DNA of 64,000 nt. Source: PVC group bacterium. Its GTDB lineage: Bacteria; Omnitrophota; Gorgyraeia; B26-G9. The notes beneath the pieces are model-generated. The model was not told the DNA's origin and did no database searches. It worked only from the letters and a program-made list of their open reading frames with translations. Shown here one piece after another: positions 2,943-29,087 of this stretch. Within the stretch, counting starts at the first letter, position 1, and each line of letters starts with the position of its first letter. A program made the position numbers and the translations under genes. The stretch is from NCBI GenBank assembly GCA_024231215.1, contig JAAEQR010000142.1, positions 292,593 through 356,592 of the forward strand. Reading direction: 5' to 3'.

Positions 2943-3914
2943 TTAGTTGTTGTCCTTTTTGCCCTGGCGAAATAAATCCAAGAATCTATCTTCGTAATCT
3001 TTGTAGATATTCCACTTATCAAGTTCTTTCTTTAAATCTTCAGCTTTGGAAAGATCCCCTTCTGCAACCTGGAACAACTTTTCTATTTTATTTTTTGCTG
3101 ATTCCGGCAAATGGGTAATCGCTGCAAGCGTCTTTTTAATATCTTCTACTTCTTCCTCACTAATCGGACCGGGAACAACTCCGGACTTAAAATAATCTAT
3201 CAATTTTTCTATCTCTTCTTCAACTATTTTTATCCGTTCATTTAAAGGCTTAAGATCAAGTTTTAACCCCATCATCCTGGAAAAAACCGATAAGCAGGCT
3301 TTTGTAGCCCGAGGATTTTCGATTTGAATAGCATAAAGCGGAATTTCAGCTAAAAAACAAGCACCTTGCATATCACGTTCCTTAGCCACACTCAAAAGCA
3401 GTCCATTTAACCCACTAATCTGTCCGACATGAAGCTTTTTTATATCTAATTTTGACAAATACTTTATCATCTCTTTACTTGTTGCAGTCATCCAGACTTT
3501 CGACTCCTGGGTATGATCAATCGGCATAGGCATTGAAGCAAATGTGAATATCTTATTCACTTTAAATGTAGCAGCCACATCTAAAACAAGTTGTGCGTAA
3601 TTATAACTTTTTTCCAAAGAAGGCTGAGCTTCACAAAGAAAAATAATCAAATCATTCTTCCCTGCTGTATTTTTCCAGTAATAGAACCTGCCGGTTGGCA
3701 ACCGAGGCTTCTCCACCTGACTGTTTACAATCCAAGCCTCATGCGGATGGAAAAATCCCTCCGGGCTCAAACGCGCAAACTCCTTAGGCTTAAGCTTTTC
3801 ACAAAGATATTCCACGGCTTTAGAAGCTACGTTTCCCATACCCGGCCAAGCGGCAATAAGATACGGCTTTTTTAATTTCGGACGGGAAATATATGATATA
3901 TGTTTGTTCTTCAT
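2943..3914 (-). CDS. PAC2-family protein (proteasome-assembly-chaperone-2-like fold)
   Basis: N-terminal motif LIAAWPGMGNVASKAVEYL matches the G-x-PG-x-G-x-V-[GA] signature of the PAC2/COG1938 family. About 320 aa, as is typical for the family. Confidence 0.55.
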   Translation of the reverse strand: MKNKHISYISRPKLKKPYLIAAWPGMGNVASKAVEYLCEKLKPKEFARLSPEGFFHPHEAWIVNSQVEKPRLPTGRFYYWKNTAGKNDLIIFLCEAQPSLEKSYNYAQLVLDVAATFKVNKIFTFASMPMPIDHTQESKVWMTATSKEMIKYLSKLDIKKLHVGQISGLNGLLLSVAKERDMQGACFLAEIPLYAIQIENPRATKACLSVFSRMMGLKLDLKPLNERIKIVEEEIEKLIDYFKSGVVPGPISEEEVEDIKKTLAAITHLPESAKNKIEKLFQVAEGDLSKAEDLKKELDKWNIYKDYEDRFLDLFRQGKKDNN

Positions 3915-4283: not shown

Positions 4284-6428
4284 ATGGATACCCTGAAAGT
4301 TTTTAAGTCCCTGCCAGAAGAAATACAAGAAGTCCTGAAAGCAAGCGGCATTGATAATCTCTATCCGCCTCAGGCCGAAGCCGTAACCAACGGCTTACTT
4401 GAAGATAAAAACATAGTTCTCTCCATGCCTACAGCTGCAGGAAAAACTCTTCTGGCTGAACTAGTCATGCTAAAAACTCTTTTAGATAAAAAAGGTAACT
4501 GCCTATACATTGTTCCCTTAAGAGCTCTGGCTTCTGAAAAATTTGAGGATTTTAGAAAGAAATTTGCTTCTTTAGGAATAAAAGTAGGAATCGCTACCGG
4601 GGATTTTGATCGCGTAGATCCCTATCTAACCAAAAACGATATCCTGATCGCCACTGCAGAAAAAGTCGATTCTCTCTTGCGTCAAAAACCAGATTGGCTT
4701 TGTTCCCGCCTGGCTTGTGTGGTTATCGATGAAATCCATTATATCGGAGATCCTAAACGCGGACCAACCCTGGAAACCGTAATTACCAGGCTTCTAAATA
4801 TGAATCCTGATTTGAAACTTGTGGGGTTAAGTGCAACCATTGCCAATGCCAATGATATTTCCGGCTGGCTGAATGCTTCCCTGGTCTCCAGCATCTGGCG
4901 GCCGGTAAGCTTAAAAGAAGGTGTCTACTGCGAGGGAGAAATCACCTTTGCCGATGGCTCCAGAAAACAGATTGATTTCGAACATACCTCCGATGATGTC
5001 GCAGCTTTGGCTATTGATTGCATTAAAGATACAGGCCAAGTACTTGTCTTTGTTACTACCCGGAGATCAGCACAAGCTGAAGCACGCCGGATTTCCAAAG
5101 AAGTACAACATATCTTAACTACTAAAGAAAAAACAAAACTCAATGATCTGGCAAAAGAAATAGAAACATCAGCTGGAGAAACAACCAAAGTCAGTAAACA
5201 ACTCGGAGAATATCTGAAAAACGGTGTAGTCTTTCATCATGCGGGATTACATTACTCACACCGCAAAATTATCGAAGATTCATTCCGGCAAAATCTGATT
5301 AAGGTCATCTGTGCTACACCAACTTTAGCTGTAGGCGTAAATCTCCCTTCCCGACGTACAATAATTCGGGGACTTTACCGCTATGTATCAGGAGTAGGCA
5401 TGCGTCCGGTAAGGGTTATGGAATATAAACAAATGAGCGGAAGAGCCGGACGACCGGGATACGATAAATTCGGAGAGTCAGTCCTGTTTGCACGTAATAA
5501 ATCCGAACAACAGGACCTATTCAGTGATTTCATCTTTGCCGATTCTGAGCCGATACATTCACATTTGGGGAATGAAAGTGCTTTGCGCGTACACCTTTTA
5601 GCATCTATTGTCACCGGATTTATCACCAGTGAAGAAAGTGCTTTTGAATTTATAAAAAAAACATTCTTTTCTTATCAGGAAAAATACTATGATCTCTCTG
5701 ATATGATTCTAGAAATTCTTGAATTTCTAGAAAGCGAAGACATGATCCAGAAAAAAGCCAGCCAATTATTACCGACAGCTTTTGGCACCAGAATCAGTCG
5801 TTTATACATTGATCCGATAAGCGCGGTTATTTTAAGAGATTGCCTTAAAGATGCTCCTACGGCCCTACACCCGACAACGCTGCTCTATCTTATCTGTTCA
5901 ATTCCGGATATGTGTAAATTAGCTTTAAAAAAACAAGATATCGAAAAATTAGTGCCCTTTGCCGATAAACACGCAGACCTATTTGAACTCCCCCTGCCTC
6001 TGGATGACGATTACAGTTCTCAGCTGGCTAAAATCAAAACTGTCCTACTGCTCATGCAATGGATGGAAGAAGTCAAAGAAGATACCATCTGCACCTCATT
6101 TGGTATCGGGCCCGGCGATGTACATCGCTTTGTTGAAACAGCAGAATGGTTATTCTATGCAACCATAGAACTTTCAAAGCTATTTAAAACCCCAACCATT
6201 GAAAAATTGCATAATATACGCACCCAACTGCGCTACGGCATAAAATCAGAACTAATGGATCTGGTCAGATTAAAAGGAATTGGAAGAACACGTGCCCGCA
6301 ACTTATTCTCCGCAGGCTTTAAAAATATGCAAAAACTGCAAACAGCTCCTCTGCAAAAGCTACAGAAAGTACCAACTATCGGAAAAGAAATCGCCGCAAA
6401 CATCAAAAAACAGGCTGTTGCGCTTTAG
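4284..6428 (+). CDS. Hel308/Ski2-like superfamily-2 DExH helicase
   Basis: Motif I MPTAAGKT, motif II DEIH, motif VI QMSGRAGRPG, a long C-terminal winged-helix/ratchet region and a terminal helix-hairpin-helix (LVRLKGIGRTRARNLF). The 714-aa length matches archaeal Hel308. Confidence 0.8.
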   Translation: MDTLKVFKSLPEEIQEVLKASGIDNLYPPQAEAVTNGLLEDKNIVLSMPTAAGKTLLAELVMLKTLLDKKGNCLYIVPLRALASEKFEDFRKKFASLGIKVGIATGDFDRVDPYLTKNDILIATAEKVDSLLRQKPDWLCSRLACVVIDEIHYIGDPKRGPTLETVITRLLNMNPDLKLVGLSATIANANDISGWLNASLVSSIWRPVSLKEGVYCEGEITFADGSRKQIDFEHTSDDVAALAIDCIKDTGQVLVFVTTRRSAQAEARRISKEVQHILTTKEKTKLNDLAKEIETSAGETTKVSKQLGEYLKNGVVFHHAGLHYSHRKIIEDSFRQNLIKVICATPTLAVGVNLPSRRTIIRGLYRYVSGVGMRPVRVMEYKQMSGRAGRPGYDKFGESVLFARNKSEQQDLFSDFIFADSEPIHSHLGNESALRVHLLASIVTGFITSEESAFEFIKKTFFSYQEKYYDLSDMILEILEFLESEDMIQKKASQLLPTAFGTRISRLYIDPISAVILRDCLKDAPTALHPTTLLYLICSIPDMCKLALKKQDIEKLVPFADKHADLFELPLPLDDDYSSQLAKIKTVLLLMQWMEEVKEDTICTSFGIGPGDVHRFVETAEWLFYATIELSKLFKTPTIEKLHNIRTQLRYGIKSELMDLVRLKGIGRTRARNLFSAGFKNMQKLQTAPLQKLQKVPTIGKEIAANIKKQAVAL

Positions 6429-13154: not shown

Positions 13155-13748
13155 TTAAGATTTTTTTCTTCTGTATCCAACTAATCCTAACAAAGCAGGC
13201 CCAAGCAATAACATAGTTGCAGGTTCCGGTACCGGTGTTGTAGCTGTAAGCTTCACTCCACGATTGTAATAATGACAATCAGGATCAAAACCTAAGCCAA
13301 CTATTCCATTTGAACCAAACTGCTGCAATGTATCAATCTGATCTGCTGTAAATGTATAGCTCCAATTGATGTAATAAGGATCGTTATCAACATATGTAGT
13401 AAGCAAATTTGTGCTTCCATTGTCTGCGAACTGATCTCCAGCAGTTGTATCCTGACCTACGAATACGCTCGGCACAATCCCTCCTGGAACTTTATCTAAC
13501 AGATGAATTGCCAACTGGTTGTCTGGATCTTCCCAGCCAGAATCATGAATCCCTCGGATAGATAATACCACGCTTTCTAAATTCCCAGGAACTTCGCTCC
13601 AATCCATACCCCATATATAATGATTCTCGTGTATCAGATCATGAAGATCTTTTGGATCCGGTTCAAAGATATATACAGCAGCATGAGCTGATGAAACAGC
13701 AGTTAATAGCATAGAACAAAAAATTACTACTCCAAGTATTTTTTTCAA
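13155..13748 (-). CDS. PEP-CTERM domain protein (exosortase substrate)
   Basis: N-terminal signal peptide. C-terminus VPEPATMLLLGPALLGLVGYRRKKS is the canonical PEP motif + TM helix + basic tail. Confidence 0.85.
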   Translation of the reverse strand: MKKILGVVIFCSMLLTAVSSAHAAVYIFEPDPKDLHDLIHENHYIWGMDWSEVPGNLESVVLSIRGIHDSGWEDPDNQLAIHLLDKVPGGIVPSVFVGQDTTAGDQFADNGSTNLLTTYVDNDPYYINWSYTFTADQIDTLQQFGSNGIVGLGFDPDCHYYNRGVKLTATTPVPEPATMLLLGPALLGLVGYRRKKS

Positions 13749-13792: not shown

Positions 13793-14608
13793 TTATTTTC
13801 TTTTCCTATATCCGGCCAATCCTAATAAAGCCGGTCCAAGCAAAAGCATAGTTGCTGGTTCTGGTACTGCCGCTGGATCAACATCAGCGTTGAGATTAAG
13901 ATAATCATTTCCACACTGCATTGCCCAATGAATATTTACCTCTGTATTTTCTTTAGGATCAATCCCTAAAGATGCCAATGGAATACATGCCTCTAATACA
14001 CGATGTGAATACTGATTCCCGCTGTAAACAAAATCAATTCTACCTTTATTGTCTCCGGTCTTTGCCCTTATTGCCCACGGATCAGCTTCAGAATGCTGCG
14101 AATACGCTGAGTCGTTCCATAAAGCATCATGATACAATCTTGCTGTACTGTTTTTTCTCTTATATGAACTTACATCCACCGCATATTCATAATCATCCAG
14201 CGCCCCAATGCTAATACCAATATCTCCCGGTAAAAACCAAGGATTGCCTGGAGCCGTAGCACCTTTAAACGGTAACCCGGTTACAATCGCGATATACGCA
14301 TTATCCTGGTCATTATCAAAGTACATTGCTTCTACATCAAATGCATTGCCTGAATATCCTGGTCCACCATAAGTATATCCAGGACCAACCTTAAACCAAC
14401 CTTGGGTTTTCTTAGATGCATTATCTTCGGTTACACAATCAACATTTGGACTCGAAGTAGGAACATTAATGTCTAAATATCCTTGTTGACGAGCTCCCTG
14501 CCCCCAGGTTATTCCCCAATCTGAAAGATCACCATCAACCACATACGCTGCATTTGCAGAAGGGATTACCAAAAACACGCTCAATAATACAATACCAAAC
14601 CACTTCAC
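13793..14608 (-). CDS. PEP-CTERM domain protein (exosortase substrate)
   Basis: Signal peptide. C-terminus VPEPATMLLLGPALLGLAGYRKRK. Confidence 0.85.
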   Translation of the reverse strand: MKWFGIVLLSVFLVIPSANAAYVVDGDLSDWGITWGQGARQQGYLDINVPTSSPNVDCVTEDNASKKTQGWFKVGPGYTYGGPGYSGNAFDVEAMYFDNDQDNAYIAIVTGLPFKGATAPGNPWFLPGDIGISIGALDDYEYAVDVSSYKRKNSTARLYHDALWNDSAYSQHSEADPWAIRAKTGDNKGRIDFVYSGNQYSHRVLEACIPLASLGIDPKENTEVNIHWAMQCGNDYLNLNADVDPAAVPEPATMLLLGPALLGLAGYRKRK

Positions 14609-15984: not shown

Positions 15985-16635
15985 TTACCCGAGGAGTCTT
16001 AAAAGGGACGGCATGCAGGTGTTAATAAAAGTTTTTAATCTTTGGAGAGCTTCTTGTTCATTATTATTGACGATTGCCGTGGAAATCCGAATCTGGCCTC
16101 CGCTAAGCGGAGATCTCTTTAAATAGGCTGTGATCAGCTTAAGACGCTGTTTAACATAACTGTCTGCAAATTCATCTCCGGCAATAAACCAATACAAATA
16201 AACCTGTTTATCTTTGTCTTTTTCAACCACAAGCTTATTTGCGGCCAGATCAAAGCTCTGTTGTTCTATATCAATCGAAATAATTTCTTTTGCTTTATGC
16301 GTAATTGTTCTTCCCTCACCTCGCAAACAATTCTCCGGAGGATCAGATGTCTTATGTGTACGTGCAGAAAAAATCAAATAGAATAATATCGGCGGCTCGT
16401 CTTCTTTCATATAATACCGCATGATTATATTTTTTGTCTCTAGAGCCGCATATATACTTTCCTTAAGCTGTACATCCTCAGATTTATAAACACCTATTTC
16501 CTGAGGCAAGTTAAAAACACTGCTATCCGGCGGTAATTCTGTCTCTGTTAATTTGACCCAAAGCGTAGCCGCTGCACCACAAAGCAATAGTATTACCAGA
16601 ACTAAAAACCGTTTATCCTTCATTTTTATCCTCAA
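15985..16635 (-). CDS. EpsI-family protein (exosortase-associated)
   Basis: About 200 aa with an N-terminal TM anchor. Overlaps the exosortase gene, the usual EpsH-EpsI arrangement. Confidence 0.5.
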   Translation of the reverse strand: MRIKMKDKRFLVLVILLLCGAAATLWVKLTETELPPDSSVFNLPQEIGVYKSEDVQLKESIYAALETKNIIMRYYMKEDEPPILFYLIFSARTHKTSDPPENCLRGEGRTITHKAKEIISIDIEQQSFDLAANKLVVEKDKDKQVYLYWFIAGDEFADSYVKQRLKLITAYLKRSPLSGGQIRISTAIVNNNEQEALQRLKTFINTCMPSLLRLLG

Positions 16636-17461
16636 GAAGCGATTTTTGCGTGGTTAATAAACCATTCATCGCCAGCATACCCAATGCCGCTACAGCAAAC
16701 AGAAGAAATCCAGAAAAATCATGCACCCATCCCTGCGCTGCTTTCATGCCATACACGTCACTTACCCAGCCTAGCAAAACTATTCGCATGACATTAGCCG
16801 CAATAGCAATCGGCAAAGCAGATAAAAACAGCAGCCATTTTTTCCATAAACTATTATTTGTTAAATAGGCAAATGCCGCACCAAAAGCCATTAGAGCAAT
16901 CAACGACCTTAATCCACTACAAGGAGCTTCCACCTCTAAATAGGAATTAGCCATATTGATTATACTCCCGTCCCGAACTGCCTCTAGACCTATCTTATTT
17001 AAAGCACTAGTCGCTAATTCTGCAGCAAATAATTTCATTTTTAAAACAATATTTGAAACCAAAACCATGGGCAAGGGAATCATAAACAAGAGATAAACAA
17101 TCGGAAAAAGCACTTCTTTTAAAGCACTCAATCCAACCATAAGCATAACAACCCCCATAATAAGAATAATCATAGAACAGGCAGAAATAAAGTAAAGATT
17201 TATAAATGTTCCGCCAAGATGGAAAACCAACGCTAGCACAATAAGTACAATACCTATATAAGAAGGATTTGTTTTTATTTCAGATAATGTGCTGCGTTTA
17301 CTCCAGATAAAAAATAAGCAGGCAATAATAATAAGAGGGCCATGACTATAGTATGTATCTTCGCTGTTCCATCTTCCCCACATCCAGTTAAACGCAGGAT
17401 AATAAATAGCCCCTAGTAAGGCTGTTATCAATAAAGTCTTGATCCAGGTAATGGTTTTCAT
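16613..17461 (-). CDS. exosortase (EpsH/XrtA family)
   Basis: 8-TM protein with the conserved YSHG motif near the N-terminus, a Cys in EAPCSGLRSL and a conserved Arg region, the exosortase catalytic signatures. Confidence 0.8.
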   Translation of the reverse strand: MKTITWIKTLLITALLGAIYYPAFNWMWGRWNSEDTYYSHGPLIIIACLFFIWSKRSTLSEIKTNPSYIGIVLIVLALVFHLGGTFINLYFISACSMIILIMGVVMLMVGLSALKEVLFPIVYLLFMIPLPMVLVSNIVLKMKLFAAELATSALNKIGLEAVRDGSIINMANSYLEVEAPCSGLRSLIALMAFGAAFAYLTNNSLWKKWLLFLSALPIAIAANVMRIVLLGWVSDVYGMKAAQGWVHDFSGFLLFAVAALGMLAMNGLLTTQKSLLEDKNEG

Positions 17462-17572: not shown

Positions 17573-20062
17573 TTACCGGCATAAAATCCGGCTTAAAGTA
17601 ATCAAAGGTTTCAAGCTAATTCTGATAATTTTACGTACTGCTGGTTTCTGTGCAATGCGATCGGCGATCGGAGGACTGTATGTATAATACAGTTTCACGA
17701 ATTTTCTGCCTAATGGATTAGTCAATAAGTAATCATCTCTAAACTCGCACAGAACTCGTACTTCTTTAGCCATCTTTGTTCCAAACGCTGCTGTAGCAAT
17801 AAAACATCCACCGCCGCCACCGCCGCCGCCAGAAGAACCACTTGCTGCTGCAGGAGGAGTGCTATCGCTATCGCCATCACTATCATCGCTATCTCCATCA
17901 TCTCCGGTATCAGTACTACCATCTGTTGAGTTAACGCCACCTATCGCATACATAGAAAAGTGAGTTGTAGGAACAGATACTTTTTTAGCCGCAACATCTA
18001 CAGTTGCACCGGGAACTTTTTCCCAAGCTGAAGTCGTAAGATTGTAATAATAGATGTTCAACGAAGACTCTTCCTCAATTCCGGCACTACTTAATTGAGC
18101 ACTAGTATAAGGAATAGTTATCGTTGCCGGAATATCAAACTCTGTTCCTCCCGGCCCGAAATCAACCACATTACCAACAATAAGAGTACTGCCTGTAGCT
18201 TCAGGAGCTGCTACTACTTGCGCTACCGTAATTGTAGTTGGCGCATCTATGGCTTGAGCACCTATGGCTACGCTTGTTCCAACAATGTTTCCTGTCTCAA
18301 CTAGTACGCTACCGCCAATCTCGTTATCTACTTTTTCCGCTTTAATTTCATCAGTAGTTAAAAACGTATTCCGGCAAAATTCAATTTCTTGTCTTCCTGA
18401 AGAGGTATCTGACCATGATACATAGTAATGACATCCTTGCGTATTTATCGCCAGAGAAGGATTATACTGCGTAGCCGTAGTATCAAACTGAGAGTATTCC
18501 TGGAATATATAATCCTGATAAGATGCTCCAGCTAATCCCACGCTGTAATTACCAGAACTATATTGCTGCCAAACAACTAAAGCATTTCCTTTAGTATCTA
18601 TGGCTAAATCATATGCCCCCAGAGAATCCGTACTTAAAATCGTTGCCGTACTATCCAGATTGTATAAGCTCTGTGCCTGGCTATACAGGTAACTAGCAAA
18701 CATCAAATCTCCAGCTTCTTTCCAAACCAGATATACATTATTTCCGTCAGAACTTACATCTAAAGCCGGCCCTTTATCTCCGGCTGTTGCAGCATTTGCT
18801 TCTACATCCGTCCCAAAACTTTCTCCGCAGTCAATTATATTCTTACTTGCACTATCAAAATAAATGCTATATGTACTATCATTGTTAACGCCATTCCAAG
18901 CTATAAATATCTTACTATTAGCATCCACCTCTATAGCCGGAGCAGCAGCTTTCTGCGGCCAGCGATCTTCATCTACTCGTAACGCTGTTCCTACAAATAC
19001 CTGCCATGCATCGGTATAATCTGCTGTTGTTCTAGTGTAATTTAAACTCGCATTACCACCATTCTCATCCACCCAACAAACATAAACAGTTGCCGGCTCT
19101 ACAGTCTGATCATCACCATCACCGGTAAGTGCCGCACCAACTGTCATTGCCGGAAATACCTGATTGCTTGTTCCTGCATCATTATATATCAGATGATTTA
19201 CTCCAAAAGCAGAACCAACAGCTTCTTTCCTAGATACATATATATCCCAGTCTCCTAAAACACTCATTTGCTGCCAAGCTACATAGATATTATTCTGGCT
19301 ATCTACTGCAATCGAAGGATACCGATCTTCTATTCCAACCGCAGAACTGTTAACTTTTATTGAAGATTGAAAACTAACTCCAAAATCAACTGACTGAGAA
19401 AAGTATATGTCCCATTCACCTTCAGTAGAACGTTCTTCCCATACCATATATACATTCTTACCATCATCAGAAGTAACTATGTGTGCTTTATCTTTCAAAG
19501 GTTCTACCGCAAATGATTCCATCATACCGCTTATAGAAACTTTTTTCTCTTTTCCGTAGATAAAATTTTGCGTTCTAAAATCGTATGTGTAAGCATTCAT
19601 CTGATTGCCCTCTAAATCTAATGCATCAACTTGAATCTCCACATTCTGCTTATAGATAAAATAATCGGCAGGATCATACATTATTACATACTCATTATTA
19701 GAGTTAACAATGATCTCTACATCATAATCTACGATCGATCCCTGCGAATCCGTATAACTCTGAACAACTCCATCTTCAATTATACTGACTCCCTCTACGG
19801 CAAGATCAATACTACTGCTATCAACCCCAATAATATCATCTTTTATACAAAGCTGAATGTTAGAATGAACCGGGATGTTGTTATTATTGTCTTGTGGAAA
19901 ACATCCATCAACATAAGGAGCATCATTATCAGCCCGCGTAGTGAAAGAATAAGTATCCGCTGTCATCTGATTAGCACAATAAGCATTAGCTGCGATCAAG
20001 AGCACCATCAAGCAGCTTATTGCCATTGTTATGATTTTTTTATTTTGTTTTGCATGTGTCAT
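17573..20062 (-). CDS. secreted surface protein 1: signal peptide, ANQMTAD N-terminal module, BNR/Asp-box-like beta-propeller repeats, Gly/Ser/Asp linker, conserved 'CFIATAAFG' C-terminal domain
   Basis: Signal peptide. Repeated Y[VL]VW.E...DIY.S.S.D.G.SF-type units. Acidic poly-G/S/D linker, then [12 protein letters not shown] and an ~80-aa tail shared with gene 25575-29087. Likely start is the ATG at 20060-20062, preceded by GAGGTGG. Confidence 0.7.
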
Positions 20063-20400
20063 CGTCCACCTCAAAAAAAGAGCCTGTTCTTGAAAGTTTT
20101 AGAACAGGCGTTTTCTTGAGTGCGGAACGGTTAGTACATAGTTTTATTTTCGACAGCTACGAGTTCCATACTATCCGCTATCACGCTACTTACTACTACT
20201 TATCACCTTCGGCAACCCAGCTGCCTTACTAGTCAATGGTCAATGGTCAATGGTCAATAGTTTAAACTTACTATCAGCCATTAGCTATCAACTATCAGCT
20301 AATGTAGGCCTGTGGCTTTGCTTCTCCGCCGCACTTGGCGGAGAAAGGCATTCACCTGTCCCATTCTTTCAAATGGTTTGCTATTATCGTGGTACACATT
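20063..20400 (-). promoter_or_regulatory. conserved 5' leader (copy A) with a GNRA hairpin, a covarying GC stem, heptad repeat arrays and a terminator-like hairpin + U-tract just 5' of the RBS
   Basis: Blocks shared with the leaders at 21382-21732 and 24999-25365: cacgataatagcaaaccatt[ct]gaaagaatggg, ggcctgtggctttgct, ttcggcaacccagctgcc. Hairpin gcctgttct/agaacaggc at 20082-20109 followed by U8. Confidence 0.6.
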
Positions 20401-20658: not shown

Positions 20659-21381
20659 TTATATGGCTAAATCGCTGGCTTCTACACTTATATTCACTAC
20701 TTCTTCATTATCAAAATCTGCAGGAGGTGCATATGTTAAGGTATAATCCGCTGATGTTCCGGTTATCGTTGGTGTTACAGTCGTTCCATTAACTTTCATA
20801 ATAATCGTGTTAATATCTACTCCAGCACCATCATCAAGTACATGCACAACAATATCTGTATCCCTGGCCACTCCCGTAGCATTTTTAGCCGGGCTATGTC
20901 CGGTTGTATACGGTGGAGTTGTATCAGGAACCGCTGAGGTAGTTACATTAGGAATGTTAGATATAGATGAAATGTTTGATTCTTCATCAGAAGTTTTAAT
21001 CGCAAAATAGTATGCTGTCTCTGCCAATAACCCATTGACCGTCATACTTTCGTTGGACCCAGCAATACTAGGAGTAGGCTCTCCGCTCACTTGCGTTGCA
21101 CTAGCCCAATTACCTTCATTGATCACAGAGGTAGAATATCTCAAATCATAACTTGTAGCTGTTCCTGTACTCCCGTCATCACCCGGAGCTGTCCAGGAAA
21201 GAGTTGCAGAATTATGAGTTGAATCTGAAATTGCTAAATCCGAGACTGCCAAAGGAGCAATCAAATCATCTACGATCGTAAATGAATATACATCTGCAGT
21301 CATCTGATTGGCACTATACACATTCCCGGCGATACATAGAACCATTAAACTTGTGATTATAAAACTACTTATCTGCCTCAT
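20659..21381 (-). CDS. secreted surface protein 2 (signal peptide, ANQMTAD module, FN3-like domain, Big-like C-terminal domain)
   Basis: N-terminus matches gene 1 (ANQMTADVYSFT). The C-terminal ~90 aa match the C-terminus of gene 3 (TTPPYTTGH...VEASDLA) at both protein and DNA level. Confidence 0.6.
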   Translation of the reverse strand: MRQISSFIITSLMVLCIAGNVYSANQMTADVYSFTIVDDLIAPLAVSDLAISDSTHNSATLSWTAPGDDGSTGTATSYDLRYSTSVINEGNWASATQVSGEPTPSIAGSNESMTVNGLLAETAYYFAIKTSDEESNISSISNIPNVTTSAVPDTTPPYTTGHSPAKNATGVARDTDIVVHVLDDGAGVDINTIIMKVNGTTVTPTITGTSADYTLTYAPPADFDNEEVVNISVEASDLAI

Positions 21382-21732
21382 AATCTTACCTCATCCTCCT
21401 TCTCCGAAAAAAAATCCTGTCCTCGAATTTATATAGAGAACAGGCGTTTTCATCGGTCAGCGCTCACCCGCCCAGTCTTCTGACGAATTTAACGTATCAG
21501 TCATCCTGTACGCTAAACGCTGTTTTTTTTACCTTCGGCAACCCAGCTGCCCTGTCCGCCATTGCGAACTTGGGGCCTGTGGCTTTGCTCCCCGCCTTAA
21601 TCTCAGCAGGAAGGGCCTCTTGACAGCCAATCCATCAAATTCATTTGTCATTTGTAACTCGACATTTGTAATTCAGGCTTTGCCTGTCGCCCGTCCCATT
21701 CTTTCGAATGGTTTGCTATTATCGTGTATAAC
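21382..21732 (-). promoter_or_regulatory. conserved 5' leader (copy C) with a terminator-like hairpin + U-tract 5' of the RBS
   Basis: Shared blocks at 21531-21551, 21574-21596 and 21688-21726. Hairpin cctgtcctc/gagaacagg at 21415-21445 with U8. Confidence 0.55.
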
Positions 21733-21752
21733 CCCTTTTAAAAGGGGTATTT

Positions 21753-24700
21753 TTAAGGAGCGAGGTCACTCGCTTCTACACTTACGCTTACCACCTCCCC
21801 ATTAGCAAATTGTGAACCCGGCGCATAAGTTAAAGTGTAATCAGCCGGAGTTCCGGTTATCGTTGGTGTTACAGTCGTTCCGTTAACTTTCATTACAATT
21901 GTATTAATATCAACTCCATCACCATCATCTTTTACATGAACTACAATATCTGTATCCCTGGCTATAGCAATAGCATTTTTAATCGGATCATGTCCGGTAG
22001 TGTATGGCGGAATTGTATCCGGCAAGATTATAGTTTCTTTGGCCTCGGCATTAGCACTATTGGAAAGACCGGAAGTATTCGGAACCTCATCCTGTGTTTT
22101 CATCGCAAAGTAGTATGTTGTACCCGGAGTAAGGCTGCTTACAGTCATTGATTCAGATGTACCGGCAACACTAGGTGTAGGCTCTCCGCTAACATCACTT
22201 GCCGCATTAAATAAAGTATCATTAGTTATGTCTGACGTTGAATACTTAATTATATATACAGAAGCCGTTCCGCTTGTCCCGTCATCTCCGGGAGCTGTCC
22301 AAGTCAAATCAATTTCTCCGTCAGCTGAACCAGTCACCGCACTTAAGTTACTCACTGCTGCTGGTGCAGTAGAATCACCCCCAGCTGCTACCTTTTCATA
22401 AGCACCAATATCATATATCCCGTTTTGCGGCCGCGAAACTTCCAAAAGATCATCATCTACATATGCGCTTAAATTTGCACCCTGATTCACTGCCGGACCT
22501 CCAGCCTTTAATTGATAATTATCCGCACCCGGATTTTCAAAAACTTCAGAAGAGGTCGCGACAACAGAGTTATCGTCCTGATTATAATTGTTCTGCCAAC
22601 TAGTTAAACTTACTAAACTTCCGGTAGGATCCTCTATATTTGTAACAATATTGTAATCACTGTCTAAACCCGACATACTTTCAGGATCTACGGCAAGACT
22701 ATCCTGCCCTCCTTCATGTATCAATATATTGTTCTTGACTTCATTACCCGTACTTCCGTTACGCAATGAAAAAGCATGCGCTCCGCCGGAAGGAACAATT
22801 ACCGTATTGTTAAAATATTTATTATCCTTACTGCCGTAAGCATCTCCTACTCCATCATCCCAACTTGCGATACCATGCTGTTGATTACCATAAACCAAAT
22901 TATTTATAATCACTGAATTGCGAATAGACGCAAAATTTAATCCGCTTGTTCCGTTGTTATAAACAATATTACTATCTACTATCGCGTTTGTAATAATCCC
23001 GTCACCTTCTTCAGCCGGGTCTGCGTTTATTTGGATTCCACCCCGGTAATTATCATAACTCGTATTACCTCTGACTATCGGATTGTCACCGCTATTCGCT
23101 ACATAAATTCCATGTGTATTTCCTGATCCCCACACTTCGTTATTTTCAATCAAGGCATCAACTGCGAACGAAGTAGAAATTCCTACAGATCCCATATTTG
23201 ATATTCGACAGTTTTTTATCTCTATTCCCAGGATATCATCTCCCGAATCCTTAGATATTCTTACCCCACGATCACTGCTTCCAGACTCTCCAATCATCCG
23301 AAATCCATCTATAGTTACATAATTTCCAGTGACATGAATTACTGCAGACCTTGCTTCGTATGCAACATTGCTGTTTAATATAACATTGCTGTTTGCAGCT
23401 CGAAAAGTTATCCTGTCTGTAGCCGTTCCCGCAGTACTAATCACAAATCCATCGTAAGTACCTGTCTGTACAATTACAGTATCTCCGCCAACTACAGTAT
23501 CTGCTGCATGCTGAATGGTTTCCCAGGGATTCCCCAGAGATCCATCATCACCGTTATCTCCACTCTCAGCCACATAATAAGTATCTCCATCATACGGATT
23601 TTCATTACCTAAATAATTCCATATATAATCGGTAAATGTCTCACTATCCGCACAGAATCCTCTCTCATGATCAGTTGTGGCTGGAGAATCTCCATAATAG
23701 GCATATGACTCTCTCATTTCATTATACATACGATCTTGATACGGCCAAGACCATAAATCATCAGCCGTCAAGACCCCATCTACATACCTTTTGATAACAT
23801 TTGCCCCTCGATCAACATCCCCTTGACCTGTCCCATCACAAGCAGAGCTATCTTCAATTCTAAGGGGATACAATATTCCCGAATCTCCAGTTAAAGCATT
23901 AGTTCCATAAGTTGCCCCGGAATTATCAAAATAGCAATAACTATCCGCTTTATCTGCCCTACTACAATTTTTAAATAAACAATTAGTAACATTTATACCT
24001 GAGCTCGAAGTAGTGTCTATTACGTCTCCAGATGATCCAATAAAAGTACATCTATCAATACTGAATGACGGATTAACTCTACAATTAACAAAAACACTTT
24101 CAGATGTTCCCACTCCCACACAATCAAGTAATCCATAAGTCATATCAGAATCTAAATTAAACGGTCTAAAATTTCCCGTATTAATTGCAATACAACCATA
24201 AATTTTATTATTACTTGAACCGCTTCTGTGCCTAAATGCAGCCCCTGCAGACCCGCTATCCGCAAAATCAATCGCAATACAATTCTCAAAAATTGAATTC
24301 TCTGCGCCATAAAAAGTAAATCCATTCTCGCCTTGGGAATCATCCTGAACTCCATCAAAACGCACCACAACACGCCTTATAGTTATGTTTGCTGTATGTG
24401 GACCGTCAGGATATTTACCATATAAACTAACTCCCGACCGACAAACCCCCCAAAACCAACAATCCTCAACTAAGCAATACTCAGCATAGTTCCCTACTTC
24501 TAATAAAGCATCCGTAGCACCTCCTGCATTTCTCCCACTACAACGCTGTATTATAATATTATTCACTCTGTTCGCATCATCAGCCCCTGAAATAACAATA
24601 ACCCCATCATTCGATTCTCTGCCATAAATCCCTTGAACAGTAATATACGAATGAGAACCAGTTATATTTATAGGAATCCGTGAACCTCCGCCATCTATAA

Positions 24701-24998
24701 TTACGCCTCCATCTGTCTCCGCTAAAATATATGTAGGCGCCCCATCTGAACCGCTTACAGGATCAACAATATTACTACCGCTGTAATCATATATGCCATT
24801 TTTATAAATCAAAGTATCTCCACCGCTCATTACCGAATTTGCATGGCTAAAAGTTCTCCAGGCATTATTATAACTGCCGTCGCCACTACCATCATTCCCA
24901 CTCGGAGAAAGATAATACGTAGCAGCAAAAAGTGAATCCGCCTGAACAATAGCTACGATACTACAGATTATTAGAATAAATATTATTTTTATTTTCAT
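21753..24998 (-). CDS. secreted surface protein 3 (signal peptide; parallel beta-helix domains X and Y; FN3; Big-like C-terminal domain)
   Basis: Right-handed beta-helix (pectate-lyase/NosD-like) repeat patterns (NNIVYNNGTSGLNF, NNLVYGNQQHGIA, GNTSYDNYRGGIQIN), FN3-like LTWTAPGDDG...YYFAMKT, and a Big-like terminal domain. The same domains occur in swapped order in gene 4. Confidence 0.75.
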   Translation of the reverse strand: MKIKIIFILIICSIVAIVQADSLFAATYYLSPSGNDGSGDGSYNNAWRTFSHANSVMSGGDTLIYKNGIYDYSGSNIVDPVSGSDGAPTYILAETDGGVIIDGGGSRIPINITGSHSYITVQGIYGRESNDGVIVISGADDANRVNNIIIQRCSGRNAGGATDALLEVGNYAEYCLVEDCWFWGVCRSGVSLYGKYPDGPHTANITIRRVVVRFDGVQDDSQGENGFTFYGAENSIFENCIAIDFADSGSAGAAFRHRSGSSNNKIYGCIAINTGNFRPFNLDSDMTYGLLDCVGVGTSESVFVNCRVNPSFSIDRCTFIGSSGDVIDTTSSSGINVTNCLFKNCSRADKADSYCYFDNSGATYGTNALTGDSGILYPLRIEDSSACDGTGQGDVDRGANVIKRYVDGVLTADDLWSWPYQDRMYNEMRESYAYYGDSPATTDHERGFCADSETFTDYIWNYLGNENPYDGDTYYVAESGDNGDDGSLGNPWETIQHAADTVVGGDTVIVQTGTYDGFVISTAGTATDRITFRAANSNVILNSNVAYEARSAVIHVTGNYVTIDGFRMIGESGSSDRGVRISKDSGDDILGIEIKNCRISNMGSVGISTSFAVDALIENNEVWGSGNTHGIYVANSGDNPIVRGNTSYDNYRGGIQINADPAEEGDGIITNAIVDSNIVYNNGTSGLNFASIRNSVIINNLVYGNQQHGIASWDDGVGDAYGSKDNKYFNNTVIVPSGGAHAFSLRNGSTGNEVKNNILIHEGGQDSLAVDPESMSGLDSDYNIVTNIEDPTGSLVSLTSWQNNYNQDDNSVVATSSEVFENPGADNYQLKAGGPAVNQGANLSAYVDDDLLEVSRPQNGIYDIGAYEKVAAGGDSTAPAAVSNLSAVTGSADGEIDLTWTAPGDDGTSGTASVYIIKYSTSDITNDTLFNAASDVSGEPTPSVAGTSESMTVSSLTPGTTYYFAMKTQDEVPNTSGLSNSANAEAKETIILPDTIPPYTTGHDPIKNAIAIARDTDIVVHVKDDGDGVDINTIVMKVNGTTVTPTITGTPADYTLTYAPGSQFANGEVVSVSVEASDLAP

Positions 24999-25365
24999 AT
25001 TTCCCCCTTAAAAAAAATACCTGTCTTCAGAAGTTAGAGAACAGGCGTAGTTCTAGTATATATAGAGTAATAGATATTATTCTCCTATACACTATTTTCC
25101 ATTCGGCAACCCAGCTGCCTTATCAGTCAATGGTCAATAGTCAATGGTTAATAGTTTTAATTCATATCAGCCATTAGCTACCAACTATCAGCTAATGTAG
25201 GCCTGTGGCTTTGCTCCTCCCGCCGTATTTTGGCGGGGAGAGGGCGTCCGCCCGTCCCATTTTTTCAACCCCGAATGAAGCAACCCTTCCAGGATACTCT
25301 TCGGGGTGCCGATGCGTTTCTCCCTAAGAGAACTACATTCGGCAATGGTTTGCTATTATCGTGGT
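24999..25365 (-). promoter_or_regulatory. conserved 5' leader (copy B) with an ~75-nt insertion inside the GNRA-hairpin stem and a terminator-like hairpin + U-tract 5' of the RBS
   Basis: Shared blocks at 25102-25120, 25127-25216 and 25243-25363. Covarying stem ctcccgcc/ggcgggag. Hairpin plus A8 (U8 on the minus strand) at 25010-25048. Confidence 0.6.
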
Positions 25366-25574
25366 TCTAATTTCTTTCAAAAAACAATGCTTCTTTTTCT
25401 ATACCGTATAACAAGAAGCAATTTTTATACCACTAATACAACAAATTTATTATAATGCTCTCACGCCTTTAACTCTATATTTGCAAACAAATTAAGAATA
25501 AAAAATATACTAAAATTACTTTTCAGCAAAATGTAAAAAAACAAATTTCCAGAAAATATTTTCCATTGAAGAAA

Positions 25575-28500
25575 TTATTTTCCATTTAGCATACTTCTGG
25601 CTACGCTAATTAAAGGATGCAAAACACTTCTTACAACTGCTTTGATTTCTTCTTTTTCCTTTATATACTCAGCTACATCAGGACTACACTTATAATATAC
25701 CCCGACAAAAAGTTTTCCGCAAGTATTACTCAGTAAATACTTATCTCTGAATCGACATAAAGTAACAACTTCATCAGCCAACGAAGTTCCAAAAGCTGCC
25801 GTAGCTATAAAACAAAGCCCGCCATCATCGCTGCTGCTGCCACCACCACCTGCCGCAGCAACATCGCCTTCGCCATCACCACCCCCATCACTACTTTCTG
25901 GGGTAATCGCACTGGCTGGATTTGAATATCCAGAACAAGCATGGTCATTATACGAACGTATTCGATAATTATATTTTGTTCCCAAACTGCGCCCTGTATC
26001 TATGTAGATATTAGTGTCAGGATCAGTAATATCAATTTCTGTATTACCTGCAATAAATTCAACACTTCTCTCTATTTTAAAACCATCGATACCAACCGAA
26101 TTATCTTCCCACGCAAGAGCAATACAATTATCGTTTATTAATTGAGCTGTAAGATTAGATGGTGTGGCTAACGTATATCCTGTTGTAGCATAAGCTTCAT
26201 TAGAATACGCTGTTTTCTCTGTAGAGTCATAGACTGCTCTGACTTGATAATAGTATGTAGTATTTCCAGCTAAGCTTCTATCGTCATAAGCTATTACATT
26301 TTGCCCCACAGTAGCTATCCGAACATATGTTCCTCCCACACCTTTTTTTCTTTCTATTTCAAATCCATCTTCCCCTTGAGCATTGTCCTTCCAATCTAAT
26401 CTTATCTCACTTAATGATACAGATCGAGCCGTTAGTTCTGAAGGGGGATATACCGGAGGAGGAGGATTGCTTAAGTACCCCCATACATAGGAAGTCAGAG
26501 TTTGCGTATCCGCACAAAATCCTCTTTGTGCATCTACAGTTGGAGGAGTACTCCCTGCTGGCGGTGTTATAGACTCCCTCATTTCCAACTTTATTCTATT
26601 TTCATTCGGCCAGGGCCATAAACTAGTTTGAGTCAATGTCCCGTTAACATATCGATTTAACACATTTGCTCCTCGATCAACACCACCTTGACCTGTCCCA
26701 TCACAAGCAGAGCCATCCTCAATTTTAATGGAGTAAAGCAACCCTGAATCACCACTTGAAGCATTAGTTCCATAATCCGAGCCAGAATTATCATAATGAC
26801 AATAACTATCCGCTTCATCTCCACTACCACAATTTTTAAACAGACAATTAGTAACATTTACACCTGAACTTGAAGTAGTATCTAAAACATCACCCGATGA
26901 TCCGATAAAAGTACACCTATCAATATTAAATTCTGGATTAATTCTACAATTAACAAAAACACTTTTAGTTGTTCCCACGCCCACACAATCAAGTAATCCA
27001 TAAGTCATATCAGAATCTAAATTAAACGGTCTAAAATTCCCCGTATTAATTGCAATACAACCATAATATTTATTATCACTTGACCCGTCTCTATGTCTAA
27101 AGCCAGCTCCAGCATTAGCCCCATTTGCAAAATCAATAGCAATACAGTTTTCCAAAATAGAATCATCGGCTCCGTAAAATGAGAATCCATTCTCTCCCTG
27201 AGAACCATCTTGAACCGCATCAAACCTGACTACTACTCTGCGCACTATAATATTATTTGTATGAGGACCTGCGGGATACTTACCATATAAGAGCACACCT
27301 GTTCGGCAAACTCCCCAAAACCAACAATCTTCTATTAAACAATACTGTGCATAATTACCAATACTACAAATAGCATCTGTAGCACCCCCGGCATTTTTAG
27401 CTCCAACACGTCTTATTTCTATATATTCGGCTCTATGATTATCGTCTACTCCGCTTACATCAATGACCTCATCGCTGGAATTATAACAATAAAATCCTTC
27501 AATCCTAATATATCTGGGAATATATGAACCTTCTCCAGTAATATCAATCGGAATACGGCTACCGATACCATTAATTTTCGCTTGCCCGTCATGTTCAGCT
27601 TTAATTGTAGTATATGCAACAGCACTTCCACTTACAGGATCAACAATATTACTCCCGGGATAATCATAAATACCATCTTTATAAATAAGAGTATCCCCAC
27701 CACTCATCTGAGAGCTAGCTTGGGTAAATGTCCTCCAGGGATTATTATAGCTGCCGTCACCGCTGGAATCACTTCCAATCGGTGAAATATAATAAGCTCC
27801 GCTTAATGTGTTTTCATATGTACCTATATCATACACAAAAGCCTGCGGCCGAACAACTCCCAATAAGTCAAAATTAACATCACCGCTTAAATTTGCTCCC
27901 TGATCTATCGCCGGACTCCCAGCTTTTAATTTATAATTATCTGACCCAGGATTTTCAAACACGGAAGAAGCCGTTGCAACAATAGAATTATTATCCTGAT
28001 TATAATTATTCTGCCAACTAGTTAAACTTACTAAACTTCCTGTTGGATCTTCAATATTAGTAACTATATTATAATCGCTGTCTAAACCAGCCATACTTTC
28101 TGTATCTACGGCAATACTGTCCTGGCCGCCTTCATGTATCAATATATTGTTCTTTACGACATTACCCGTACTTCCGTTACGCAATGAAAAAGCATGCGCT
28201 CCCCCGGAAGGAGCCACCACTGTATTATTTAAATATTTATTGTCTTTGCTCCCATAACTATCTCCTGCTTCATCATCCCAACTTGCAATACCATGCTGTT
28301 GATTATCATAAACCAGATTGTTCCTGATCAATGAGTTACGGATAGACGCAAAATTTAATCCACTTGTCCCGTTGTTATAAACGATATTATTTTCTACCAA
28401 AGCATTGGTAATTATCCCATCACCTGCCTCCAGCGGATCTGCGTTTATCTGGATTCCGCCTCTATCATTATTATAGCTCGCATTACCTCTGACTATCGGA

Positions 28501-29087
28501 TTGTCACCGCTATTAGCTACATAGACTCCATGCGTATTTCCTGAACCCCACACCTCGTTATTTTCAATCAAAATATCAACTGCAAACGAAGTAGATATCC
28601 CCACAGATCCCATATTTGATACTCGACAGTTTTTTATCTCTATTCCCAGGATATCATCTCCTGAATCCTTAGATATCCTTATCCCGCGATCATTGCTTCC
28701 AGATTCTCCAATCATCCGAAATCCATCAATAGTTACATAATTTCCAGTGACATGAATTACGGCAGATCTTGCTTCGTAGGCAACATTAGTATTTAAGACA
28801 ACACTGCTGTTTGCAGCTCGGAAGGTTATTCTGTCTGTAGCAGTACCTGCGGTGCTGATCACAAATCCATCGTAAGTACCCGTCTGTACAATTACAGTAT
28901 CTCCGCCAACTACAGTATCTGCTGCATGTTGGATGGTTTCCCAGGGATTACCCAGAGATCCGTCATCGCTGTCAGATCCGCCCTCTGAAACATAATAGTC
29001 CGCAGCAAAGGAAAATGGAGTAAAGAGGACAGAAAGCGCAAGAATACACAGATTGGCTAGTAAAAAGATTTTTAAATTTTTACTCAT
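25575..29087 (-). CDS. secreted surface protein 4 (signal peptide; beta-helix domain Y then X; two FN3 domains; G/S/D linker; 'CFIATAAFG' C-terminal domain)
   Basis: Domain Y (aa ~30-440) is nearly identical to gene 3 aa ~470-900; domain X likewise. Two FN3-like units (WKDNAQGEDGFEIERK; WEDNSVGIDGFKIERS). C-terminal [14 protein letters not shown]... tail shared with gene 1. Confidence 0.75.
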   Translation of the reverse strand: MSKNLKIFLLANLCILALSVLFTPFSFAADYYVSEGGSDSDDGSLGNPWETIQHAADTVVGGDTVIVQTGTYDGFVISTAGTATDRITFRAANSSVVLNTNVAYEARSAVIHVTGNYVTIDGFRMIGESGSNDRGIRISKDSGDDILGIEIKNCRVSNMGSVGISTSFAVDILIENNEVWGSGNTHGVYVANSGDNPIVRGNASYNNDRGGIQINADPLEAGDGIITNALVENNIVYNNGTSGLNFASIRNSLIRNNLVYDNQQHGIASWDDEAGDSYGSKDNKYLNNTVVAPSGGAHAFSLRNGSTGNVVKNNILIHEGGQDSIAVDTESMAGLDSDYNIVTNIEDPTGSLVSLTSWQNNYNQDNNSIVATASSVFENPGSDNYKLKAGSPAIDQGANLSGDVNFDLLGVVRPQAFVYDIGTYENTLSGAYYISPIGSDSSGDGSYNNPWRTFTQASSQMSGGDTLIYKDGIYDYPGSNIVDPVSGSAVAYTTIKAEHDGQAKINGIGSRIPIDITGEGSYIPRYIRIEGFYCYNSSDEVIDVSGVDDNHRAEYIEIRRVGAKNAGGATDAICSIGNYAQYCLIEDCWFWGVCRTGVLLYGKYPAGPHTNNIIVRRVVVRFDAVQDGSQGENGFSFYGADDSILENCIAIDFANGANAGAGFRHRDGSSDNKYYGCIAINTGNFRPFNLDSDMTYGLLDCVGVGTTKSVFVNCRINPEFNIDRCTFIGSSGDVLDTTSSSGVNVTNCLFKNCGSGDEADSYCHYDNSGSDYGTNASSGDSGLLYSIKIEDGSACDGTGQGGVDRGANVLNRYVNGTLTQTSLWPWPNENRIKLEMRESITPPAGSTPPTVDAQRGFCADTQTLTSYVWGYLSNPPPPVYPPSELTARSVSLSEIRLDWKDNAQGEDGFEIERKKGVGGTYVRIATVGQNVIAYDDRSLAGNTTYYYQVRAVYDSTEKTAYSNEAYATTGYTLATPSNLTAQLINDNCIALAWEDNSVGIDGFKIERSVEFIAGNTEIDITDPDTNIYIDTGRSLGTKYNYRIRSYNDHACSGYSNPASAITPESSDGGGDGEGDVAAAGGGGSSSDDGGLCFIATAAFGTSLADEVVTLCRFRDKYLLSNTCGKLFVGVYYKCSPDVAEYIKEKEEIKAVVRSVLHPLISVARSMLNGK

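Follow-up and report, generated by a model that had tools for sequence, protein, structure and literature searches.

Why do two large proteins, encoded 8 kb apart and close to an exosortase gene, share a similar short ending when their other domains differ, and what might that ending do for them? The window, i.e., the whole stretch of 64,000 nucleotides that was analysed, contains both genes (A and D), and GenBank assigns gene A to the MAG of a PVC group bacterium. Both genes lie on the minus strand, a detail missing from the original prediction. Coordinates are collected in Table 1.

The locus

Protein A consists of a signal peptide, a Big_5-like domain, a BNR/beta-propeller-like region, a ZU5-like domain ending in HFS, a linker and the shared tail. 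Protein D has a signal peptide, two right-handed beta-helix modules, two Fn3 domains, a linker and the tail. An exosortase and EpsI (15985..17461) are encoded directly downstream of gene A, and two PEP-CTERM proteins belong to the same locus. The PEP-CTERM model TIGR02595 matches one of these small neighbouring proteins (ORF 13155-13748, 21.8 bits with a cut-off of 16) and has no match in A or D at E <= 1. Orthologues of gene A occur at 40-50% identity in the relative loci L001-L004; the exosortase adjoins the orthologue in L002 and L003, as it does gene A in the window, but not in L004. Two distinct proteins with the tail are encoded both in the window and in L002. This analysis gave no sign of exosortase or EpsI acting on the tail.

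Table 1. Features of genes A and D and of their locus, in window coordinates
Feature	Coordinates	Strand	Details
Gene A	17573..20062	-	NCBI start 20062; 829 aa; MCP4650104.1; GenBank 'hypothetical protein'
Gene A, ORF	17573-20074	-	
CFI-box-CTERM domain of A	17576..17806	-	Residues 757-833, CFIATAAFG...RILCR; NF041770, 99.4 bits
NF041770 core in A	17600-17806	-	Within the CFI-box of A
Acidic Gly/Ser/Asp low-complexity linker of A	17807..17935	-	Residues 714-756; 13 G, 10 D, 9 S of 43
Gene D	25575..29087	-	1170 aa; MCP4650107.1; GenBank 'hypothetical protein'
CFI-box-CTERM domain of D	25578..25814	-	Residues 1092-1170, CFIATAAFG...SMLNGK; NF041770, 88.5 bits
Acidic Gly/Ser/Asp linker of D	25815..25898	-	Residues 1064-1091; 11 G, 5 D, 5 S of 28
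Exosortase	16613-17461	-	TIGR02602, 193 bits; context only
EpsI	15985-16635	-	TIGR02914, 56 bits; context only
PEP-CTERM protein	13155-13748		Same locus
PEP-CTERM protein	13793-14608		Same locus

The shared tail

Comparing A with D by BLASTP gives a single significant segment (38 of 75 residues identical, 51%, E 2e-22), all else having E > 0.5, and the common region is the final ~77 residues of each protein. A degenerate DNA pattern for CFIATAA finds exactly these two sites in the window, where 0.01 would be expected by chance. The linkers before the tail have the acidic Gly/Ser/Asp composition given in Table 1, and from our reading of the sequence, that of A closes with a run of eight Gly immediately N-terminal to the Cys. 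Linker length differs between five gene A orthologues.

The highest Kyte-Doolittle mean over 19 residues is 0.88 in the tail of A and 1.36 in that of D, below the ~2.3 of family members with a transmembrane (TM) helix, so FIATAAFG is indeed too short for such a helix. For the tail of A (net charge +10, hydrophobic moment 0.59), AF2 predicts a compact, all-alpha fold of four helices in 77 residues (pLDDT 82.7; helices at tail residues 9-14, 19-32, 38-60 and 62-83). Much of the original prediction is thereby borne out: a conserved, discrete module on two proteins that differ in all other domains, an acidic linker before it, a terminus distinct from PEP-CTERM despite the exosortase and two PEP-CTERM substrates in the locus, and no TM helix in the hydrophobic stretch. 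What did not stand was its view of the domain as unrecognised.

Family membership

Judged by sequence, the two tails almost certainly belong to CFI-box-CTERM, a curated NCBIfam family (NF041770). Each matches the model over its full length (positions 1-69 of 69), at more than twice the curated cut-off of 40 bits. A "CFI-box" in this context is a domain of about 70-77 residues with four predicted helices; it opens at a conserved Cys, in the signature CFIATAA[FY]G. The CFIATAA-led domain lies at the C-terminal end of both proteins (Cys757 of 833 in A, Cys1092 of 1170 in D), the core of the model stopping 8-10 residues short of the stop codon. Homologues already carry the NCBI name "CFI-box-CTERM domain-containing protein". 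A and D resemble other members in their extreme C-terminal placement, the CFIATAA[FY]G start and the Gly-rich low-complexity linker before it, but they belong to a shorter subclass, with 77-79 residues from the Cys and neither TM helix nor Arg cluster behind the core, while most sampled members have both.

Other resources were blank for the tail: there was no Pfam match at E <= 1, nothing from a PDB sequence-profile search, nothing with E < 5 from Foldseek against PDB using models with and without the TM helix, and no paper from a literature search with the family name and motif. The best BFVD fold match, a phage "intramolecular chaperone auto-processing" protein, was not significant (E 1.5, probability 0.38). 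The C-terminal domain of type IX secretion, a beta-sandwich, was considered and rejected: no NCBIfam/TIGRFAM T9SS model matches, and the predicted fold is all-alpha.

The gain for the window itself is small. The claim of a novel tail falls with NF041770, a domain that already has a name, and the two "hypothetical" proteins can be given the CFI-box-CTERM annotation. The family survey is the more useful part.

Spread and conservation

A profile search found 31,132 representatives at E <= 1e-3 (~31,000 clusters at 50% identity) in bacteria of many phyla, archaea and phages, and in almost all of the 150 matches listed, the CFI-box is at or near the C-terminus. A genome scan likewise found at least 593 genome stretches encoding relatives, in many bacterial phyla (including Chloroflexi) and in archaea. 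The motif is thus not confined to the duplication in this locus, a point on which the original prediction had called for a survey. Genomes can hold several CFI-box paralogues with unrelated passengers: across 102 members, 108 Pfam families were counted, most of them secreted modules (e.g., Fn3, PKD, GDSL lipase, Ig-like domains and beta-helix).

About 25 residues (C, FIATAA, R..RD, YY..SPPIA, R, P) are invariant or nearly so across bacteria, archaea and phages. The Cys is invariant in 46/46 and 102/102 aligned members, a sampling biased towards the motif. The residue before it is Gly in 133 of the 141 top representatives, usually making the junction GG|CF, although among genome matches it is often S, P, N, K, E, L or W. 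The alignment has no conserved His or Ser-Lys pair. A second Cys (in "LC.FRD") had been proposed as part of the shared pattern, but most members have Arg there. A query lacking the motif, meant to probe the invariance of the Cys, gave nothing beyond short pieces of ORFs that begin at an internal "MEPHV".

No recurrent gene turned up beside the family. Among 123 flanking genes, no Pfam family was present in more than two, and all-against-all BLAST clustering of the ORFs of 80 loci gave no shared neighbour cluster beyond generic families. The CFI-box presents ~31,000 clusters with a conserved Cys, no similar structure found and no recurrent neighbour gene.

Forms with and without a transmembrane helix

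A TM helix and basic cluster follow the CFI-box in 51 of 84 genome-contig tails and 123 of the 141 top representatives, the helix lying ~75 residues past the Cys. Some genes are tandem fusions, in which the order is CFI-box, TM helix, basic loop, signal-like TM helix and then a second module, which puts the CFI-box on the external side of the membrane.

The TM helix is absent from A and D and from all seven Omnitrophota loci among the matches listed; these proteins end after a cationic amphipathic fourth helix. In TM-less tails, this helix is more amphipathic (mean hydrophobic moment 0.49 vs 0.22) and cationic (charge +3.5). Recent truncation of the TM form was ruled out because the same ending is kept in five orthologues.

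Some CFI-box proteins have no signal peptide. On phage contigs, these include HNH (HNH_3), GYF_2 and zinc-ribbon/TPR fusions, and 107-aa SAR86 proteins are a further case; they too finish in a Lys/Arg-rich amphipathic helix. For the SAR86 mini-protein, a close-relative query against viral contigs returned nothing, and its neighbour genes were uninformative. Together, the cationic TM-less subclass and the cytoplasmic-type phage carriers argue against a signal of purely Sec-side, sortase type.

Possible roles

An anchoring or sorting role for the tail is plausible. The reading we prefer, tentatively and at a little under even confidence, is that the CFI-box is a self-contained module that keeps its protein on the surface of a membrane. 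In most sampled members it would sit just outside the cytoplasmic membrane, followed by the TM helix and Arg/Lys cluster, while in the PVC/Omnitrophota form the strongly cationic amphipathic fourth helix would end the protein in place of a TM helix. A and D would first be exported by Sec, after which the fourth helix and the short hydrophobic CFIATAAFG may hold them at a membrane face, and the flexible acidic linker could let their enzyme-like passengers reach into the exopolysaccharide layer built by the locus.

Cationic amphipathic membrane-targeting sequences of the MinD/FtsA type consist of one helix of 10-20 residues, poorly conserved in sequence. The CFI-box resembles them in its C-terminal Lys/Arg-rich amphipathic helix (moment about 0.5-0.6), in that a TM segment is dispensable and in that the cytoplasmic side is possible. 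It differs in having four helices and a conserved sequence, the Cys included, and in being used mostly outside the cell. The anchor model assigns the Cys no role, and conservation of ~25 residues exceeds what a simple amphipathic anchor needs, which hints that a particular ligand, partner or chemistry is involved. The compact AF2 fold would be just as compatible with a soluble bundle or with a unit for oligomerisation.

We consider it unlikely, though worth weighing first among the alternatives, that the CFI-box is a Cys-directed sorting signal. An enzyme encoded elsewhere (CPBP/myxosortase-like), or the adjacent exosortase, would then cleave at or after the Cys and attach the passenger to a lipid or envelope component, as with MYXO-, CGP-, PEP- and PGF-CTERM. 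The Cys stands exactly at the border between variable linker and conserved tail, as it does in Cys-type signals, whose cleavage depends on it (PMC11980579). Like MYXO-CTERM (myxosortase MrtX), CGP-, JDVT- and Synerg-CTERM, the CFI-box is a C-terminal tag on many unrelated surface proteins, with multiple paralogues per genome, and like the Cys-type tripartite signals, it opens with an invariant Cys and in its majority form closes with a TM helix and Arg cluster. However, Cys-type signals have ~30 residues with the Cys right before the TM helix, whereas the CFI-box puts a 69-residue helical domain between the two, and the tails of A and D have neither helix nor Arg cluster. Carriers lacking a signal peptide would also be beyond the reach of an extracytoplasmic sorting enzyme, and because the CFI-box ends such proteins, Cys cleavage or acylation is weakened as a general explanation.

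There was no CPBP or rhomboid protein among the window ORFs scanned (a set without ORFs 1135-1947 and 1944-2933), and neither CPBP nor any recurrent neighbour beside the 80 loci. As for the exosortase, its adjacency to gene A or its orthologue in three genomes would suit such a signal. It shares the locus with EpsI and two PEP-CTERM proteins, but A and D lack the PEP motif as well as the TM helix and Arg cluster. The CFI-box also reaches Chloroflexi and archaea, neither of which is known to have exosortases. Separately, ORFs 1135-1947 and 1944-2933 are ABC-transporter-like by BLAST.

Oligomerisation or docking is a somewhat poorer candidate. CFI helices would bundle together or attach to some conserved component of the envelope or the exopolysaccharide, so that a partner, not the bilayer, retains A and D. 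The compact four-helix prediction suits this, conserved polar residues (R, D, YY, S) could make an interface, the occurrence in both cytoplasmic and exported contexts recalls generic oligomerisation domains, and two different CFI proteins share a locus in the window and in L002. On the other side, no TM-bearing CFI partner occurs in any Omnitrophota/PVC locus among the matches listed, and in cytoplasmic members a lone Cys cannot provide a conserved disulfide. "Stand-alone" CFI+TM mini-proteins were discarded as evidence of docking partners: P0031, the one examined, proved to be part of a larger gene that a frameshift has split.

Comparably doubtful is a broader proposal, in which the CFI-box would be the recognition or reaction module of an undescribed chemistry at the Cys, whether lipidation, transfer or self-cleavage of the Gly-Cys junction, in bacteria, archaea and phages, with the passenger of the TM-less PVC/Omnitrophota variant handed to the adjacent exopolysaccharide/exosortase machinery.

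Self-processing in the narrower sense seems improbable. It would involve an N-to-S acyl shift at Gly-Cys (like the "G|CF" of Hedgehog/inteins) or a cleavable chaperone like phage tailspike S74, with the tail released or exchanged. The Gly-Cys-Phe junction that opens the module, the retention of the Cys even in cytoplasmic members, the nature of the best BFVD match and the placement of the domain behind beta-helix passengers, as in D, are what one would look for. But the BFVD match is non-significant, the -1 residue is often not Gly among genome matches, and at 69 residues the all-alpha CFI-box is about half the size of Hint or Peptidase_S74 and lacks their catalytic residues. Both were rejected: the Hint autoprocessing domain (beta-rich, about 130-150 residues, Thr-x-x-His) by the absence of a Pfam match and of a conserved His and by the four-helix model, and Peptidase_S74 (PF13884, Ser-Lys dyad), which has no Pfam match at E <= 1, with the BFVD match as its only link.

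Finally, the idea that the likeness is due to chance, or to a duplication restricted to the locus, has nothing in its favour beyond two copies 8 kb apart. It can be dismissed given copies whose protein sequences are no more than 51% identical, the low chance expectation of the motif in the window and the ~31,000 cluster representatives elsewhere.

Genes A and D share a known C-terminal domain

The minus-strand genes A and D are both labelled "hypothetical protein" in GenBank, on a 497,756-bp contig of the PVC group bacterium MAG, and the two regions singled out in the original prediction are their 3' ends. Read from sequence, both products have a signal-peptide-like N-terminus. Their bodies are unrelated: by Pfam and NCBIfam, A has a weak Big_5 match, BNR/beta-propeller-like repeats and a weak ZU5-like match, and D contains a pair of right-handed beta-helix modules plus two Fn3 domains. 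The predicted shared C-terminal region is confirmed by BLASTP of A against D, which finds one significant segment only (the last 75 residues, 51% identity, E 2e-22), by a back-translated CFIATAA pattern with exactly two sites in the 64-kb window (chance expectation 0.01), and by the linkers preceding the Cys. Neither tail (the C-terminal region from that Cys onwards) has a TM segment, with top Kyte-Doolittle 19-residue means of 0.88 (A) and 1.36 (D).

Features of the window, with nucleotide positions
Feature	Position	Strand	Remarks
Gene A ORF	17573-20074	minus	deposited as MCP4650104.1, start 20062, 829 aa
Gene D	25575-29087	minus	deposited as MCP4650107.1, 1170 aa
Tail of A	from 17806	minus	starts at Cys757, after 43-residue acidic Gly/Ser/Asp linker
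Tail of D	from 25814	minus	starts at Cys1092, after 28-residue acidic Gly/Ser/Asp linker
Genes B, C, D	20659-29087	minus	C and D permuted paralogues
ZU5-like region of A	~17936-18283	minus	weak Pfam ZU5 match, E 0.0022, under cut-off
HFS tripeptide of A	17954-17962	minus	residues 705-707
Exosortase and EpsI domain	15985-17461	minus	separate ORFs, 23-nt overlap
ORF	1135-1947		ABC-transporter-like (BLAST)
ORF	1944-2933		ABC-transporter-like (BLAST)
PAC2-family protein	2943-3914	minus	upstream of locus
Helicase with archaeal-type domain 4 (Hel308-like)	4284-6428	plus	upstream of locus
23S-rRNA-intervening-sequence-type four-helix protein	49330-49686	minus	inside polysaccharide cluster

The NCBIfam model NF041770 (CFI_box_CTERM; curated cut-off 40 bits) covers both tails over positions 1-69 of 69, scoring 99.4 bits for A and 88.5 bits for D, and no Pfam model matches either. 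The original prediction was thus partly right: the shared tail stands, but its status as an unrecognised domain does not, given these confident matches. A and D are new members of a known, curated family, and for several homologues NCBI already uses the name "CFI-box-CTERM domain-containing protein". A second Cys in the proposed motif (LC.FRD) is not conserved among the aligned tails. A full-text literature search by family name and motif strings returned no papers, and the family has apparently never been the subject of a publication. TM-less members and cytoplasmic phage members narrow what the CFI-box may do.

Family size, conservation and passengers

A profile built from an alignment of 46 tails matched 31,132 proteins at E <= 1e-3 (23,803 at E <= 1e-10) among 1.84 billion cluster representatives, and among the 150 matches listed the domain is nearly always at, or close to, the C-terminus. 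A scan of one genome per species found at least 593 stretches encoding relatives, several of the loci coming from single MAGs in some cases. Hosts among the 80 loci kept include Omnitrophota, Planctomycetia, Chloroflexi/Dehalococcoidia, Desulfobacterota, Nitrospirota, Gammaproteobacteria, Spirochaetes, Armatimonadetes and the archaeon Ethanoperedens, and the protein search gave a Hadarchaeum protein. In aligned members the C, F, I and A of the box and then L, R, Y, S, P and A are invariant, while T, A, A, G, D, LL, G, Y, P, I, I, R and P are at least 90% conserved. Upstream of the tail, 102 members carry 108 Pfam families, most commonly Fn3 (15), PKD (12), GDSL lipase (7), Ig-like domains, DUF11, beta-propellers and beta-helices, as expected of a generic end-tag carried by secreted proteins.

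Architecture and predicted fold

Tails fall into three classes by length after the Cys. In the majority class (100-115 residues) the core is followed by a TM helix and this by an Arg/Lys cluster; the class accounts for 51 of the 84 tails from genome contigs and for 123 of the 141 top representatives, the latter set being biased because the search profile included the TM region. An intermediate class of about 85-89 residues, with an acidic hydrophilic end, occurs in Gammaproteobacteria and Nitrospirota. The short class (73-81 residues, no TM helix) includes both window proteins, the seven Omnitrophota loci without exception, two from Planctomycetia and the archaeon Ethanoperedens.

AF2 models the tail of A as four helices (pLDDT 82.7) and a TM-bearing member as the same four plus a fifth, the TM helix (pLDDT 76.9). 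Searches of the PDB gave no fold match to either model and no sequence match to the CFI profile. The predicted fourth helix is more cationic in TM-less tails (charge about +3.5) than in TM-bearing ones, and more amphipathic (mean hydrophobic moment 0.49 versus 0.22); A's tail carries a net charge of +10, with a moment of 0.59.

Four very long proteins (P0062-P0065) carry two full passenger-CFI-TM units head to tail, joined by a basic loop and a signal-like or lipobox-like segment. Their order (CFI, TM, basic loop, signal-like TM, second passenger, second CFI) puts the CFI core on the outer face of the cytoplasmic membrane.

In a Thermodesulfobacteriota MAG (L066:7622-11152) and a Nitrospirota MAG (L075:548-2149), a CFI-box protein (CFI, TM and basic loop) continues in frame into a second signal-like segment and a ~270-aa domain resembling the outer-membrane exchange protein TraB (NF033763, E 4.5e-12, far under cut-off). 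In Myxococcus, TraB is the partner of TraA, a Cys-tagged MYXO-CTERM receptor. Short "stand-alone" CFI+TM database entries should be treated with caution: the 111-aa P0031 (L088:1-814), annotated by NCBI as a CFI-box-CTERM domain-containing protein, comes from a larger surface-protein gene that a frameshift in the MAG has split, and represents its 3' fragment.

CFI-boxes on non-exported proteins

The domain is used in both cell compartments. In phage genomes, tblastn found a 351-aa protein of Clostridioides phage pCD1602_4 that lacks a signal peptide, has a zinc ribbon at its N-terminus and ends in a CYIATAVYGS... tail scoring 85 bits on NF041770. Eight IMG/VR loci encode the domain: six on proteins without a signal peptide (cytoplasmic-type partners HNH_3, GYF_2 and TPR, one with a zinc ribbon) and two in the usual order of signal peptide, passenger, CFI and TM. 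Marine SAR86-type contigs encode 107-108-aa proteins made of an acidic 30-residue N-terminus (MDEEEMMMW...) and the CFI domain, with stop codons immediately upstream of the 107-aa proteins. All these signal-peptide-less proteins end in a Lys/Arg-rich amphipathic helix.

The cytoplasmic-type proteins at viral and phage loci L082:4173-5225, L089, L090, L092 and L094-L096 end in a CFI-box with neither Gly linker nor signal peptide, and their partners are a zinc ribbon with a TPR-like region, HNH_3 and GYF_2. The stand-alone SAR86-type protein (L081:98-421; L083-L087) has no signal peptide or TM helix and is abundant, one cluster holding 135 member sequences; its gene neighbours are SbcCD-like or lack a family match.

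Possible partners and function

A conserved neighbouring gene is absent. Besides CFI proteins, BLAST clusters across the 80 loci gave only generic recurrent families (ABC ATPases, histidine kinases, response regulators), and in a Pfam census of 123 immediately flanking genes no family occurred in more than two. No CPBP or rhomboid gene was found among the window ORFs scanned, the two ABC-transporter-like ORFs being compared by BLAST only.

We tentatively favour a self-contained module sitting at the membrane surface. The majority form would be permanently anchored by its TM helix, and the PVC/Omnitrophota form would attach peripherally through its fourth helix, which is cationic and amphipathic, and through the hydrophobic CFIATAAFG segment. 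The acidic linker would tether the enzyme-like passengers of A and D flexibly inside the polysaccharide layer.

This membrane-surface model does not account for the level of conservation or the conserved Cys, and three alternatives stay alive for that reason. A Cys-directed sorting or lipidation signal is unlikely but the strongest of them; an outer-face enzyme could not reach the signal-peptide-less members, so a sortase-type mechanism acting purely on the Sec side leaves part of the family unexplained. An oligomerisation or docking module seems a little less probable still. A self-processing junction is very improbable.

Locus context

The window is a large exopolysaccharide locus. Export proteins (Wza-, Wzc- and kinase-like) are encoded together with enzymes for sugar nucleotides, numerous glycosyltransferases, a flippase, an O-antigen-ligase-like protein and a deacetylase. 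After these come D, C, B and A, and next the exosortase and EpsI genes. A gene for a priming sugar transferase is next, followed by those for two PEP-CTERM proteins, for a BamD-like protein and for a sensor kinase and sigma-54 response regulator. From D through to the regulators, an Omnitrophota MAG (L002) shows synteny, its proteins being 40-68% identical. In L003, too, the orthologue of gene A adjoins the exosortase, though not in L004; the link is suggestive but confined to the lineage. The window exosortase scores under cut-off for all subtypes; the closest named types, XrtW and XrtD, are exosortase/EpsI fusions.

Among genes A-D, only A and D carry the tail; B and C end directly after a Big_5-like domain, followed by gaps of 370-580 nt. 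Residues 474-879 of C align with 31-436 of D at 85% identity, and 21-465 of C with 425-874 of D at 69%. B aligns at 63% with C's final 206 residues, and its N-terminal residues 2-43 align with 8-49 of A at 57%. The HFS tripeptide of A, at the end of the last folded domain and just before the linker, is invariant in five of five orthologues. HFS is the autoproteolytic site of ZU5 domains and Nup98, so the passenger of A may be cut from its linker and CFI tail.
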